A DNA stretch of 46,550 bases, taken from UHGV virus genome UHGV-0289467, one strand, 5' to 3'. Source of the stretch: a virus. Shown in pieces: positions 14,361-44,481 of the stretch. The position numbers were made by a program, and so were the translations under genes. The notes beneath the pieces are model-generated. The model saw nothing but the letters and a program-made list of their open reading frames with translations, did no database searches and was not told the origin of the DNA. The number at the start of each line of letters is the position of its first letter. Position 1 is the stretch's first letter.

Positions 14361-16895
14361 TTATCTCCTGCTCCTTCTAATCCATCCAGAGCCTCGCTGT
14401 ACGATGTGATCGTTGCATGCATATCTGATTGCGTCAATGAAGTGGTTCCACGCATCCACAATATTTGTGAGCACGTTACCCGTCAGCTTGTCCACCTTGT
14501 AACTGTACATAGTGAACTCTTCCTGAGTCTGTGTGCAGCGGTCATGAATGATGATGCTGTCGCAACCCCTGAGCCAGGTTACACCCTCCTCCACGCTCCC
14601 GGGCCACTTATTGCATGGATGGATATCAAATCCTGCGCGTTTGATGTGACTGATTGTTTCTGGCCGAGAGCAGTCCCCATACCATCTTGCCTTCCTGGAG
14701 AGTGGGAATGATTGCTCCATCGCTGTAGGTGTGTCGGTAATCTCAAGGCCTACACGGCCGTATTCGCGCGCGACGTAAAGATTGCGTCGGTCATCAGGAA
14801 GTTTCTCAATGTAAACCTCAACCATCGCCGTTGCGTCCTGCGAGAATCCAAAGTCGATGCCAAAGTAAGGCCCATGCCATTCCGGCTTAACCTCGAAATC
14901 AGCAACGCGCCACTTACCGCCAAATACCTGCTCATCATTACGCTTATTAAAGCGCCCACCCCACACCCATTGATAGCGGTCGAAGTCGGTTTCTTTCATG
15001 CGCTGCATTTGGCTTGGGAGCGGAGTATCCCAGAACCACGGATTGTCTGAGTAATTACACTCGATAATCAGGTTTTCATCATCCTCATAGATGCCGCCAT
15101 TTTCGCGCAATTTATTATAAAAAGGCTCAACCCATATTTTCCACGTCGGGTCATGCTCTTTATTTGGGTTGAAAGTCACCCATATCTCTGACCCTTCAGC
15201 GCGGACTGTTGGGGTGAGGATTTCCCAGCTTGTCTGGCTGACGTTTTCCGCCTCCTCGACCCAAGCTACTGTAATGCCAGCGAAGCCTTTAACGGTCGTC
15301 TGGTTGCGATACAGCCCCTTAAATCTGAATTTTGCCTTCGTGCCTTTGTGGGTTATCTCATTATTGATGACGCGAAACTCTTTCGTTTCTCCCTTGCGAT
15401 CAATTTCGTCCTTCAGTTCCTGATATGAGCTATCTTCAATGGACTGCTGAATCTCACGAAAACAAGCTATCCTGTCAGGCTTAAAGCGTGCACGCTCCGT
15501 AAGTATTGTTGTTACTGTCCTTGTTTTTCCGCTGTTGTGTGTAACCGTGCCATCAGCAAGCAAGAAAAGATGATCGCCATCAAGAGTGAACCCAGCGTAT
15601 TCACCATGCCCGACATAAGACAATGACACCTCAGTCATCTTTCCACGGGTTGACTTGGTTTTCTCTGCTATCTTCCTTTTTACTCGGCATGGGATTGTAT
15701 GAAGGTCACCACTAACGAACACCTCCCATACGTCCTTTTCGTATATTCTTTTCTCACCTTTATATTCAAAGGTGATATCAGTCTTTTTGATTATGCTTGA
15801 CTTGAAGCCAAGCGATCTTGCCACATCCATCAAAGAGAAGGCCATTTCTTTATTTATTGATGTGAAAGAATAGCTTTTCTTTTTCTGGTCATAATGCGAA
15901 TCAGTATCCAATAGCCCAGCCAGAATCTGAAGTCTTACCTCTCTGCTGTTTTTGATATAGCAGTCAGGTATGTGTTTATTATTAATCACCCCAAGCTGCT
16001 GCATTTTAGTTAGTAACGGGTTGGTGTTCTTCCCCATGCCAGCAGCTCGACCATTAGTTATCGCATAGACAGGGCATCTATCATCGTCGCGAACCTTTAC
16101 CTGCATCCCGTATTGGCTTGCCACATTGTGAATGTAGTCAACTATCTCTGGATCAGGCGTGCACACTTCAACACCACGAGATGAACCATCACCTAACCAT
16201 AAACCAAGAAAGTACGGGTCAACTGGGACGCTTTGGTAATTAAAATCCCATCCTGTTCGCCACCCTTTAAAGACATGGCGGAACTTTTTGGAAGTTGCGC
16301 GCGACAAATATTCTGAAACACCAATATTCAGTATTTCAGGTTCATTCGGGTAATAACGATAAATTCTTTTACCATCCGGTGTTTTTGTCTCGTCACTGAT
16401 AGCAGATGGAATCTTTCGTAATGACAGTATGTGACTTGAGTTGACAGTGTAGTCATCAGCATATTTTTGATGAACCGTATACATGTCATCAAACCCCCGA
16501 CAGATGTTTAAAACATTTCGTGGTTTACTGTCTGGACCCATAACCTTATCGCCAACAACGATATCCTCTACGCGTTTTAGGCTACCATCAAACATCCTCA
16601 CCATCGTGCCGATGGCTAAGCATCCGCGCCCGCCAAACACAATCTTATTACGCTTGGGGTAAAGTAGCTTTTCCAGCTTTTCTGGTATCAGGTGATCAAC
16701 GCCAATATCAGAGTCGCTAACGTCATCAACTCCGCTTTGCGTCATTTTTAGTTTGCGAACAATCTGCTTATCTGTATTAACAACACCGAACACCGCAGAT
16801 TCAGGCGCATCAATCACGCCATCGCCAATAATCTCTTCGAGTTTTTCAATTGCTGGTGCTGAGAGTCTTTTGCGTGCCATATATAGATTCCTCAT
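14361..16895 (-). CDS. terminase large subunit, interrupted by an intein
   Basis: 844-aa ORF; N-extein ends …IVFGGRG, C-extein begins SGKTRTV… which rejoin to the Walker A box GGRGSGKT; C-terminal nuclease-like part; downstream of TerS. Confidence 0.9.
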   Translation of the reverse strand: MRNLYMARKRLSAPAIEKLEEIIGDGVIDAPESAVFGVVNTDKQIVRKLKMTQSGVDDVSDSDIGVDHLIPEKLEKLLYPKRNKIVFGGRGCLAIGTMVRMFDGSLKRVEDIVVGDKVMGPDSKPRNVLNICRGFDDMYTVHQKYADDYTVNSSHILSLRKIPSAISDETKTPDGKRIYRYYPNEPEILNIGVSEYLSRATSKKFRHVFKGWRTGWDFNYQSVPVDPYFLGLWLGDGSSRGVEVCTPDPEIVDYIHNVASQYGMQVKVRDDDRCPVYAITNGRAAGMGKNTNPLLTKMQQLGVINNKHIPDCYIKNSREVRLQILAGLLDTDSHYDQKKKSYSFTSINKEMAFSLMDVARSLGFKSSIIKKTDITFEYKGEKRIYEKDVWEVFVSGDLHTIPCRVKRKIAEKTKSTRGKMTEVSLSYVGHGEYAGFTLDGDHLFLLADGTVTHNSGKTRTVTTILTERARFKPDRIACFREIQQSIEDSSYQELKDEIDRKGETKEFRVINNEITHKGTKAKFRFKGLYRNQTTVKGFAGITVAWVEEAENVSQTSWEILTPTVRAEGSEIWVTFNPNKEHDPTWKIWVEPFYNKLRENGGIYEDDENLIIECNYSDNPWFWDTPLPSQMQRMKETDFDRYQWVWGGRFNKRNDEQVFGGKWRVADFEVKPEWHGPYFGIDFGFSQDATAMVEVYIEKLPDDRRNLYVAREYGRVGLEITDTPTAMEQSFPLSRKARWYGDCSRPETISHIKRAGFDIHPCNKWPGSVEEGVTWLRGCDSIIIHDRCTQTQEEFTMYSYKVDKLTGNVLTNIVDAWNHFIDAIRYACNDHIVQRGSGWIRRSRR
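15534..16622 (-). mobile_element. intein (363 aa) with LAGLIDADG homing endonuclease, inserted in the TerL P-loop
   Basis: starts with Cys (CLAIGTMV… block A), ends …LLADGTVTHN followed by Ser (+1); two LAGLIDADG motifs (FLGLWLGDGS and LAGLLDTDSH) in the middle. Confidence 0.85.
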
Positions 16896-16979
16896 CAGGG
16901 CATCATTGAAGTGAATGCGGCAGGCGGTGATGAGTCGCTTTTCGGGTGCCCCCTAGCCGCATTGATTATTATAAATCAG

Positions 16980-28196: not shown

Positions 28197-28225
28197 GTTT
28201 TCAAAAAACAACATAAGGTATATGA

Positions 28226-28458
28226 CTATGAAAGATGAACATGGTGTTGATGTAATTTTAGGTAATCCGTACTTATACATATACGGGATGCCAGGGCCTG
28301 ATACAACACTGGTTATCGCAAAGTAATTCAAAAATGATAAAGTTTTATGTTTCGATGTTTATTCGGAACGTGATATTGAATTAGACCCTGGAGAACTTTT
28401 CCAGCGCAAAGAGACAGCATGGACAGATCAGGAAATTCGTAAGGTTTTTGATTTTTAA
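28226..28458 (+). other. coding-like frame interrupted by in-frame TAA (32 codons + TAA + 43 codons)
   Basis: ATG 28226 …LVIAK then TAA at 28324-28326, same frame stays open to TAA at 28456-28458 encoding FKNDKVLCFDVYSERDIELDPGELFQRKETAWTDQEIRKVFDF. Confidence 0.35.
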
Positions 28459-34229: not shown

Positions 34230-34721
34230 ATGATTACGCAAAAAGAGCTTAGGTCGTTACTATCATACAACGCAGATAGCGGTGTTTTTAGATGGCTTGT
34301 TAATAAATAATTTTCCGTGAAAAAGGGTGATGTTGCCGGAAGGAAAAATAAAAGCAGCTACATCACAATAATGATTGATGGAGTTAGATATCAAGCAAGC
34401 CATTTGGCGTGGCTGTATGTAAATGGCGAGATGCCATCGAGGGCAATAGATCACATCAATGGCATTAGGAGTGATAATAGAATCATCAATCTAAGGGAGG
34501 CTACGCTATCTCAGAACGCAATGAATAGAATTAAGACTGTGAATAACACGTCGGGGTACAAAGGTGTTAGCTTTCACAAGCAAAGCGGTAAGTGGCAGGC
34601 AAGCATAAAGATAAATGGGAAGCAGAAATATTTGGGCTTGTTTTTGTCTCCAAAGCAAGCCCACGATGCATATGTAAACGCCGAAAAAGTTATTTTTGGC
34701 GAATTTAGCAGGTTTTGTTAA
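34230..34721 (+). pseudogene. HNH-AP2 homing endonuclease interrupted by in-frame TAA at 34308-34310
   Basis: ATG 34230 (GGAG RBS) …NADSGVFRWLVNK-TAA-FSVKKGDVAG… then intact HNH core IDHINGIRSDNRIINLREAT and AP2 domain GYKGVSFHKQSGKWQASI…; the segment around the stop aligns with VYENGKLYWKVKPSN of the paralog at 5209; inserted antisense between two minus-strand tail genes. Confidence 0.7.
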
Positions 34722-40098: not shown

Positions 40099-40851
40099 TT
40101 AGGTAACGGTAACGACACACTTGGTGGAGTCAACGTAATCAGGACTGGTTGCTGAGTCCATCACGCGGCAGAAGTACGTACCAGCATCACCTTCGGCTGC
40201 GGTAGCCTTGGTGAACGTGTCGGTAGTAGCACTGCTGATCGGAGAAGTGCCTTTATACCATTGGTAGGTATAAGGCTCGACACCGCCAGCAGCAACTACC
40301 GGACCGAGCGTCAGAGTGTCGCCAGTAGCAACGCTTTTGGTTTCACTGATATCAGTGGTCAGCGTCAAATCTTCGATGCTGGACACGTCAACGGTAGAGC
40401 CATCATAAGGCTTGAATTCAACCGAGCCGGTGATGATGTCGTTGGTGCCGCCATCGTAGCTCAGAGCGGTGATGTTGCAGTAAGCTACCACGACGGTGTT
40501 ACCAGTCGTTTGACGAACCCACAGCGACGGCTGGCGACGCGCTTTAACTTCTGTGACAAAGTATTTGATGAGGTTATGCACGCCATACTCATCAGCCTTG
40601 TCGGCCTTGCGAACTTCAAAATCACCGGAAATGGTTAGGTCTGCGGTAGTTACCAGCGTTGCAACAAAGCCATCGCCATCATCAGCCTCTGAAGTGGTGG
40701 TGCTTGGACTGAAGTCGACGCCTTTTGAGGTCATGGGAGCAAAAAACTTCCAGTATTCCTCTGCTGGCACAGCATCCCAGCAGCCATCAGCCAGCTCAAT
40801 GAGAGACTGGCGACCTGTGATGATGCCGTTATCATTTGCACAAATAGCCAT
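40099..40851 (-). CDS. major tail protein with C-terminal Ig-like (Big_2-type) domain
   Basis: 250 aa; C-terminal ~80 aa (…TLTLGPVVAAGGVEPYTYQWYKGTSPI…GTYFCRVMDSA…) has the Ig-like pattern common on tail tube proteins. Confidence 0.65.
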   Translation of the reverse strand: MAICANDNGIITGRQSLIELADGCWDAVPAEEYWKFFAPMTSKGVDFSPSTTTSEADDGDGFVATLVTTADLTISGDFEVRKADKADEYGVHNLIKYFVTEVKARRQPSLWVRQTTGNTVVVAYCNITALSYDGGTNDIITGSVEFKPYDGSTVDVSSIEDLTLTTDISETKSVATGDTLTLGPVVAAGGVEPYTYQWYKGTSPISSATTDTFTKATAAEGDAGTYFCRVMDSATSPDYVDSTKCVVTVT

Positions 40852-40942: not shown

Positions 40943-41020
40943 GCACCATTAGCTCAGCAGGATAGTAGCAACGGACTTCTAATCCGTAGGTCACTGGTTC
41001 GAATCCAGTATGGTGCACCA
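40943..41020 (+). tRNA. tRNA-Arg (anticodon UCU)
   Basis: GCACCAT/ATGGTGC acceptor stem, GGTTCGAATCC T-loop, anticodon loop CTTCTAA, encoded CCA; closely parallels E. coli argU architecture. Confidence 0.85.
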
Positions 41021-41023
41021 AAT

Positions 41024-41100
41024 TCCCGTTTAGCTTAACTGGTTAAAGCACCCGACTCATAATCGGATGATTACAGGTTCGAATCCTGTCGCGGGAACCA
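41024..41100 (+). tRNA. tRNA with CAU anticodon (Met elongator or Ile2/lysidine type)
   Basis: T-loop GGTTCGAATCC, D-stem GCTT/AAGC, anticodon loop CTCATAA, encoded CCA; anticodon arm CGACTCATAATCG identical to that of E. coli tRNA-Ile2(LAU). Confidence 0.7.
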
Positions 41101-42756: not shown

Positions 42757-43021
42757 TCTTTTTGCTCTCCCGAATCTTCCACCACATCTCAAAAAGGTTT
42801 TTTGCCACCAGTGACAACGCGCCAAGTATAGAGGCTACCGCCGCCCACTCGGTAATCGAATGGGGGAACATTGAGGCAATGTATGATTGCGCTACTGGCG
42901 TCTGCTCTGCCACCTTCAGGCCAAGGCCCGTACCAATGGACGTATAACCGGCTTTGTCGATTACCTGTCCGACGGTGCCACTAATTATCTGGTTTGCGGC
43001 GTGCTGAAGCGCGTCTCTCAT
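42734..43021 (-). CDS. hypothetical protein with C-terminal hydrophobic helix
   Basis: 95 aa; AAVASILGALSLVAKNLF hydrophobic segment; first gene of minus connector operon. Confidence 0.4.
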   Translation of the reverse strand: MRDALQHAANQIISGTVGQVIDKAGYTSIGTGLGLKVAEQTPVAQSYIASMFPHSITEWAAVASILGALSLVAKNLFEMWWKIRESKKNGSTDSK

Positions 43022-43167
43022 TAATTATTCTCCGAATGATGAACTTCCAGCATCTGTACACCTGAACCAGCGAAAACGCTATGACGATAACGCCGATTGC
43101 TATATCCAATTTCGCCGCCTTACGTTTTTCAGGACGGAACAGCGCGGGGTGAGTGTTGTTGGTTTAA

Positions 43168-43211
43168 TTTTATCATAAAGTGTTGACGTAGATTGAGGGT
43201 GTCGCTATAGT
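43168..43211 (+). promoter_or_regulatory. promoter module TTTTATCATAA-N4-TTGACGTAGATTGA-N9-TATAGT
   Basis: TTGACG 43183-43188, 17-bp spacer, TATAGT 43206-43211; second copy TGACGTAGAAAC at 43214-43225. Confidence 0.55.
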
Positions 43212-43251
43212 GATGACGTAGAAACAACAATAAATGTTAGAGGTGATGAAT

Positions 43252-43542
43252 ATGAAAGGTTTTAAAGGTACGCCGGGGCCGTGGTCAGTTAATGAAATAG
43301 GCCAGCACTGGAATAATAAATGATTAACCCATCTAGAAGTTATTTTTGGCGAGGATGGTGAATGCATTTGCGACACTGTTTATCAGCGCGAAGATGCCAA
43401 TCTCATAGCCGCTGCGCCGGAGTTGCTGGAAGCATTGACTACAACACTCGATGAAATCGGGCATTGGTTATCACAACAAAAACCAGACCTTAAAGAAAAG
43501 ATGGCCTCTGCAATCGCCAAAGCGCTAGGAGAATCACAATGA
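43252..43542 (+). other. ORF interrupted by in-frame TGA (23 codons + TGA + 72 codons)
   Basis: MKGFKGTPGPWSVNEIGQHWNNK-TGA(43321-43323)-LTHLEVIFGEDGECICDTVYQREDANLIAAAPELLEALTTTLDEIGHWLSQQKPDLKEKMASAIAKALGESQ; downstream part is protein-like and contains the LIAAAPELLEAL motif. Confidence 0.4.
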
Positions 43543-43655
43543 TTCGCCACGAAATCCGCAAAGAAGATCTGAAGGCGTGGGATAAGTTCAAAATCAAGCT
43601 GGCATTAATAGTTATCGGATTCGCCATTGCCAGCGCAATCTGTTTATCAAAGTGA
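43539..43655 (+). CDS. small single-TM membrane protein (38 aa)
   Basis: MIRHEIRKEDLKAWDKFKIKLALIVIGFAIASAICLSK; ATGA coupling. Confidence 0.3.
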   Translation: MIRHEIRKEDLKAWDKFKIKLALIVIGFAIASAICLSK

Positions 43656-43662
43656 GGAAAAA

Positions 43663-44481
43663 ATGACATCTCTCGGAAAAATTTACTCAGACAAAGAAAC
43701 TCGCGGCGGAATCGTGGTCAACAAAGGTTATCAGGTTCCCGTCGACCAGCTTTATCTTGAACCGGGATACAACATCCGCGAAGCCGATGAGCAGCACGTT
43801 GAATACTTTGCGCAGTGCTGGGAATCAGGCCAGCCAATCCCGGCGTTAACTGTTATTCCTGATGCTGACGGAAAGCGCATCAAGATTCTTGACGGTCAGC
43901 ATCGTTACCTTGGCGCACTGCGTGCCATTGATCGCGGTGTACCAATTGCGCGCATTGAGTGCAAAGACTTCACCGGCGATGAAGCGGACAAAATCGCCTT
44001 CATGGTGTCATCCAGTCAAGGAAAGCAGCTTGACCCGCTTGAGCGTGCAAAGGCTTATGTGCGCCTGAAAGGGTTCGGATGGACGAATGAAGAAATCGCC
44101 AAGAAGGTTGGTCGCTCAGTTTCTGATGTGCAGATGCACCTGTCACTTGGTGATGTACCTGATTCCATCAAGCAACGCATCAATGCAGGCCAAATCAGCT
44201 ATGCCAACGCCGTTGCAGTGGCGCGTGAGCATGGCGATGATGCCGTTAACGTTATTGATGCTGCCGTTGAGGAAGCAAAAGCACAGGGCAAAGATAAGGT
44301 GACGGCCAAAACGCTCAAGGCCAAAAAAGTTAAGCCGATTGACCGCCTGATTCAGTTGCTGAAAGAAGCAGATCATATGGTGGTTGCTGAGGGTCATGTG
44401 GCACAGGAGACAGAAGAATTTTTGCGCCTTCCTTCCGCTGAGTTGAGTGAAGTTCTGGCTATTCTGGAGAAGCTGCGATGA
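43663..44481 (+). CDS. ParB N-terminal-domain (ParB/Srx-like) nuclease-like protein
   Basis: 272 aa from GAGGAA-supported ATG; …VPVDQLYLEPGYNIREAD…ALTVIPDADGKRIKILDGQHRYLGAL… matches the ParB/sulfiredoxin fold signature (DGxHR). Confidence 0.65.
   Translation: MTSLGKIYSDKETRGGIVVNKGYQVPVDQLYLEPGYNIREADEQHVEYFAQCWESGQPIPALTVIPDADGKRIKILDGQHRYLGALRAIDRGVPIARIECKDFTGDEADKIAFMVSSSQGKQLDPLERAKAYVRLKGFGWTNEEIAKKVGRSVSDVQMHLSLGDVPDSIKQRINAGQISYANAVAVAREHGDDAVNVIDAAVEEAKAQGKDKVTAKTLKAKKVKPIDRLIQLLKEADHMVVAEGHVAQETEEFLRLPSAELSEVLAILEKLR

Follow-up and report, generated by a model that had tools for sequence, protein, structure and literature searches.

The plus-strand gene at positions 43252–43542 is interrupted by an in-frame TGA that is probably a derived single-base opal nonsense substitution in a small accessory early gene, and not a site of recoding. 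The window, by which we mean the whole 46,550-base stretch analyzed, is a complete genome from a Klebsiella-group siphovirus that is Chi-like (Casjensviridae-type). As originally predicted, the gene opens with an ATG at 43252–43254 and comprises 23 sense codons, the TGA at 43321–43323, and 72 open codons up to a normal TGA at 43540–43542; an alternative in-frame ATG lies at 43234. The translation reads MKGFKGTPGPWSVNEIGQHWNNK, the premature stop, and then LTHLEVIFGEDGECICDTVYQREDANLIAAAPELLEAL...KALGESQ before the normal stop. This 96-codon gene belongs to PHROG 1273 and Pfam PF27050 (Phage_P22_Y8K6). The single base that creates the premature opal stop is 43322, a G in the window and a C in the relatives, which thus encode Ser24 (TCA).

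The interrupted gene is the first of an early operon on the plus strand. The promoter proposed at 43183–43211 is well supported: it is sigma-70-like (TTGACG, a 17-nt spacer, and TATAGT), matches 10 of the 12 consensus positions, and is identical in phages KlebP_265 and DP01. The second gene, a 38-aa ORF (43539–43655, plus strand) called as a gene in all close relatives, is preceded by an AGGAG, and its ATG shares bases with the TGA that normally ends the interrupted gene (ATGA). It is followed in the same operon by a ParB/KorB-like gene (43663–44481, plus strand) with a PF17762 HTH_ParB domain, annotated as ParB-like in relatives. The end of this third gene (44476–44481) is one codon longer than in several relatives, with CGA in the window where they have TGA. 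Contrary to the original prediction that neither ATG nor GTG occurs in frame 3' of the premature stop, an ATG is present at 43501 (13 aa; the M of ...KEKMASAI...), as is a TTG at 43423 (39 aa). When the 39-aa C-terminal fragment starting at this TTG was looked up as a called protein, none was found.

None of the matched GenBank phages, among them DP01, KlebP_265, KP591P1/P3, SCNJ1-C, and pYD38-A, matches the window throughout; they show patchy matches at about 87–94% identity. Contigs from metagenomes and from assemblies of sequencing runs are much closer. SRR35866992_4391 is 99.45% identical to the window over 19.6 kb, and ZHAN20-1 scaffold_611 (L031) is 99.8% identical over 5.9 kb. The match to scaffold_611 runs on across the window ends, from the last bases to the first, a sign that the genome is circularly permuted.

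Comparison with these relatives established the origin of the TGA. The search for a sense codon in related phages, suggested as a check of the original prediction, returned TCA (Ser) at this codon in all 19 related sequences inspected. In KlebP_265 and DP01, the ORF is uninterrupted and 90 aa long, with AATAAATCATTAACC in place of AATAAATGATTAACC in the window. We searched IMG/VR, ENA metagenome contigs, and species-representative genomes with a 31-mer around 43322 in which the variable base was left free. The C allele was recovered from three IMG/VR contigs and two ENA metagenome contigs, and the species-representative genomes gave no match; across the three collections, the search for the TGA allele thus returned only C alleles, or nothing. 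An intact 96-aa gene differing from that of the window at 43322 only lies upstream of the ParB gene in four contigs whose ParB protein is exactly that of the window, within about 4–6 kb of flanking DNA that is 98.7–99.8% identical. Scaffold_611 differs from the window at two of 5288 bases, one of which is 43322. The intact protein is recorded on at least 22 contigs, and in nine of the nine contigs inspected, the 291-nt gene equals that of the window at every base but 43322, even though most of their flanks diverge by 3–5%. The TGA is a derived C-to-G change, TCA (Ser24) to TGA, private to the window sequence. Shared by no relative and accompanied by no further decay, it is presumably very recent.

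The near invariance of nucleotides extends over the block formed by the promoter and the first gene (43000–43542), in contigs with flanks mostly diverged by 3–5%. This suggests either a recently exchanged cassette or an unusually strong constraint. In GAOR21-1 scaffold_11130 (L042), from the position homologous to about 43240 onward, an extra small ORF separates the conserved promoter from a different allele of the PF27050 gene, which points to this position as a hotspot for cassette exchange.

The frame that follows the TGA had been described as coding-like, and it is indeed not open by chance, because it encodes the conserved remainder of a known protein family. With the stop repaired to Ser24, the 96-aa protein matches positions 3–101 of the 103 positions of phrog_1273 (E = 2.7e-22), the match spanning both sides of the stop, and it is 100% identical to cluster P0001 (19 contigs). 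PF27050 is precomputed for the identical intact protein. A local copy of Pfam-A gave no match to the protein, presumably since the newer PF27050 model is absent from that copy. At E ≤ 1e-5, 326 homologues were retrieved, every one a single protein; among the 120 listed, lengths range from 88 to 125 aa and all carry PF27050. The 23-aa ORF and the downstream frame, which the original prediction considered might be separate genes in homologues, therefore form one gene in all 326. Together with the sense TCA of the relatives, this favors the nonsense allele that had been listed among the possible causes. The window protein is a full-length member of the PF27050/PHROG 1273 family once its stop is repaired, and differs from the others in being broken at codon 24, a state seen in no other member.

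The alignment of 28 diverse members delineates a conserved N-terminal domain, FKGTPGPW.VNEIGQHWNNKSLTHLEVTFG.DGECICDTVYQREDANLIAAAPELLEAL, a variable middle, and a conserved C-terminal AI.KALGES motif. The stop falls between the invariant W20-N21-N22 and L25, in a column filled by Ser, Ala, or Met in these 28 sequences, with neither Cys nor Trp among them. The AlphaFold model (mean pLDDT 76) predicts strands at residues 11–18, 25–32, and 37–45, followed by two helices, so a 23-aa product would hold the first strand only of this three-strand, two-helix fold. A PDB sequence search with the protein gave no match, and a Foldseek fold search gave no significant one (best E = 0.33).

Translation from the early promoter would end after 23 residues. 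In the predicted fold, this point separates the first two beta-strands of the conserved N-terminal domain; neither fragment would thus be expected to fold, and the allele would be null. Residual near-cognate misreading of the UGA by tRNA-Trp would provide at most a trace of full-length protein. As the next gene has its own upstream AGGAG, the operon should still be expressible. The phage would tolerate the loss if, as seems probable, the gene is dispensable, and two other accessory genes of the lineage already carry inherited TAA pseudogene alleles. Against dispensability, no inspected relative lacks an allele of the PF27050 gene; this retention and the unusually conserved promoter-plus-gene block suggest that the gene normally matters.

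Two further in-frame stops, at 28324 and 34308, had been noted as showing the same kind of interruption. They do exist, but they are not the same stop, both being TAA and not TGA. The stop at 34308–34310 lies in an HNH_3 + AP2 homing-endonuclease gene (34230–34721, plus strand) and results from a TCA-to-TAA change (C to A at 34309). It is common to three of six close relatives (L031, L035, and L036), and the copy in scaffold_611 has decayed further, with a 1-nt deletion at the position homologous to 34453 of the window in addition to the shared TAA. The stop at 28324–28326 interrupts a small ORF remnant located after the SSB gene (28222–28458, plus strand) and results from a GAA-to-TAA change (G to T at 28324). 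It is common to eight of nine close relatives; L033 reads CAA, and the codon is GAA in distant relatives. Base 28324 thus exists in three states: T in the window and in eight of the nine close contigs, C in DRR859844_10904, and G in distant phages. KlebP_265 and DP01 carry other stops within the same small ORF, which indicates that it is decaying independently in several lineages. Both TAA alleles are certainly real inherited pseudogene alleles and not errors, because they are common to independent assemblies. Scanning the genes of the relatives (greedy gene set) against the window revealed no further in-frame stop backed by several relatives and no frameshift-type disruption. Avoidance of restriction sites was also considered and rejected: the change at 28324 destroys a GAATTC, yet six GAATTC sites remain in the window.

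The original prediction took three such stops to suggest more than random decay. Their codons, ages, and distributions differ, and the three stops are unrelated events of different ages. Moreover, nonsense changes are far below the neutral expectation. Relative to at least three relatives, the window has 711 private substitutions, of which 377 are synonymous, 261 missense, and two or three nonsense. A neutral model with the observed mutation spectrum gives synonymous, missense, and nonsense changes in the proportions 176:453:25, and scaling to the synonymous count leads to about 53 expected nonsense changes. Nonsense changes are therefore about 20-fold rarer than expected, and three stops are no excess. 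Three survivors in small accessory genes are what one would expect to remain under purifying selection if a few genes are dispensable.

Programmed recoding in any form is very improbable at the TGA, and the signals that we looked for are absent. In the coat/A1 system of phage Q-beta, a UGA in a phage gene is likewise followed by an open in-frame extension. A programmed or regulated readthrough of this type, with the stop kept for low-level production of the full-length protein, had been put forward for the window gene. Its intact downstream frame and position directly behind a strong promoter are in line with the proposal, and tRNA-Trp could in principle read the codon: of the three stops, UGA is the leakiest in enterobacteria, with Trp-tRNA(Trp) and RF2 competing for it (PMC10570021). 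Nevertheless, the stop in the window is conserved in no relative, its upstream part is a 23-aa fragment of a domain and not a functional unit, and an intact downstream frame is expected anyway of so recent a mutation. The Q-beta stop, by contrast, is conserved, and the protein encoded upstream of it is complete by itself. Nor is the context leaky. TGA ends 39 and TAA 41 of the 87 ORFs in the window (80 together), a TGA is most often followed by T (16 ORFs), and the codon found most often before a stop is AAA (10 ORFs). The AAA-UGA-U found here is thus the commonest terminator context of the window and looks like a normal terminator. A stimulatory RNA structure was rejected, as the 68-nt stretch that begins with the stop is no more stably folded than shuffled sequences (z = −0.13). 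Some background misreading of UGA, on the order of a per cent or less, is to be expected in every enterobacterium, and nothing suggests that it is exploited here. Regulated readthrough is a very unlikely explanation. Decoding of all three stops by selenocysteine insertion, an alternative code, or suppressor tRNAs is extremely unlikely. TGA is the selenocysteine codon, and the gene shares with fdhF-type recoding an in-frame UGA in an enterobacterial translation system; Klebsiella has the selenocysteine machinery. However, fdhF-type recoding depends on a SECIS hairpin 3' of the UGA, and we found none by folding or in Rfam. A scan of 43100–43700 with E up to 10 gave no SECIS and chance eukaryotic matches only, and a scan of the whole window at the gathering score returned two tRNAs and an int-alpA motif only, which led us to reject a SECIS or other RNA family at the stop. 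In addition, the homologous residue is Ser, Ala, or Met and not Cys or selenocysteine, and neither ARAGORN on the window nor Rfam detected a suppressor tRNA or tRNA-Sec, the two tRNAs being Arg(TCT) and Met(CAT). Phages with reassigned TAG or TGA codons and suppressor tRNAs also have in-frame stops in their ORFs, but in the window only three ORFs are interrupted, all small and accessory, the core genes are stop-free, and TGA and TAA are the normal stops. Two kinds of stop are beyond any single suppressor, and for the same reason passage on a suppressor host, also proposed originally, cannot explain one TGA and two TAA.

Either a private nonsense mutation arose recently at 43322, or the G is a consensus or base-call error, and neither case involves recoding. 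We consider a real mutation likely, a judgment that includes a small share for a selected knock-out. There is a lesser but appreciable chance that the G does not exist in the phage, having arisen as a base-call, consensus, or assembly error or another alteration of the deposited sequence, and that the genome reads TCA. Systematic sequencing error had been listed among the possible causes; it is tenable for 43322 only, since each of the two TAA alleles turns up in several independent assemblies. The G is a singleton against the 19 inspected relatives and the contigs recorded with the intact protein, as well as one of just two differences from scaffold_611, all of which would be expected of an error. 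At the 21,581 positions for which at least four close relatives provide coverage, seven such singletons were counted in the window, and the comparison with scaffold_611 added an eighth difference at 40755 (the sites are 26391, 28878, 29103, 31488, 34684, 35803, 40755, and 43322). All eight are non-synonymous and seven are transversions, five of these C>A or G>T. Unfiltered noise or oxidative damage to the library could produce such a spectrum, which differs from that of the older private substitutions, mostly synonymous and with 59% transitions. Five of the eight sites lie in tail genes (tail spike twice, tail protein, tape measure, and major tail), which fits real host-adaptation mutations too. 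The probability of no synonymous change among eight is about 0.08 under random mutation, and eight sites are too few for a firm test of the spectrum. The pattern is compatible with fresh mutations that selection has not yet filtered, with adaptation to a laboratory host, or with noise in the sequence. Against an error, the lineage does accumulate in-frame stops, the other two being certainly real, and the disrupted-gene scan was free of frameshift-type disruptions. A real mutation might also have been positively selected, if loss of the accessory gene was an advantage on the host used, for instance through the absence of a defense-triggering protein. The protein-changing singletons and their share in tail genes are what host adaptation would produce, although eight of eight does not differ significantly from random mutation. 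This reading also draws on a 12-mer, TAATAAATCATT, present at 34301–34312 and 43314–43325 of the window, in which the same C was changed, to A in the HNH gene (inherited) and to G in the PF27050 gene (private). Of about 250,000 pairs of private substitution sites, none shares a longer context, its 9-mer core TAAATCATT is found at no other place in the window or in five complete relatives, and the 12-mer would then mark a recurrent knock-out site. On the other side, the coincidence was spotted after the fact, shorter sub-motifs are left unmutated elsewhere in the window (AAATCATT, five copies; ATCATT, 54 copies; and others), and the searches of the local Pfam-A copy, PDB sequences, and folds gave no functional clue to the protein. 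A positively selected knock-out is accordingly improbable.

The rough chance probability of the 12-mer coincidence is 1e-5 to 1e-4, for an observation made post hoc. We regard it as a post-hoc oddity and not as evidence for a mechanism. That two stops hit the same C does count against a purely random reading, as chance would not predict it. A motif-specific systematic error or a methylation motif is not supported, given the intact sub-motifs, and we found no restriction or methylation explanation for the 12-mer; judging from the annotation of relatives, no methylase is encoded at the corresponding place in the window. It is improbable that the C of TAATAAATCATT is a recurrent knock-out site, whether through a local mutational hotspot or through selection silencing accessory genes. 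If it were, the stops would have arisen independently in the HNH gene (TAA) and the PF27050 gene (TGA), the TGA would be an adaptive, possibly reversible OFF allele instead of random decay, and the silenced genes might be, for example, triggers of host defense.

The proposed opal nonsense substitution thus resembles classical nonsense alleles, or nascent pseudogenes, of phage accessory genes that are not essential. Like these, it is a single-base and private change that truncates a conserved domain, and other accessory genes of the lineage have nonsense alleles, one of them further decayed. The downstream frame would still be intact because the event is recent. The case does not differ in kind from classical opal nonsense alleles, its oddity being the shared 12-mer, in which the older TAA of the HNH gene had arisen at the very same base. 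A nonsense allele of this sort is an already known kind of thing; a literature search on Casjensviridae and nonsense alleles returned nothing relevant. The finding has little weight for biology: 43252–43542 should be annotated as a disrupted gene or pseudogene, or the base checked, and not described as recoding. When close relatives are available, an open frame after a stop, even with three such stops in one phage, needs no special mechanism. Sequence quality, laboratory adaptation, or a mutational hotspot could explain the shared 12-mer and the all-nonsynonymous, transversion-rich singletons.

Two other features of the window RNA complement were observed. The two tRNAs, tRNA-Arg(TCT) and tRNA-Met(CAT), lie at 40943–41100, where DP01, KlebP_265, and KP591P3 have an adjacent tRNA-Ser(GCT) too. 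The int-alpA RNA motif maps to 16900–16963 on the minus strand (42.6 bits in Rfam for a gathering score of 35.8). It is directly upstream of an 844-aa ORF on the same strand (14361–16895), which, from its size and the annotation of relatives, looks like the large terminase, possibly with an insertion.
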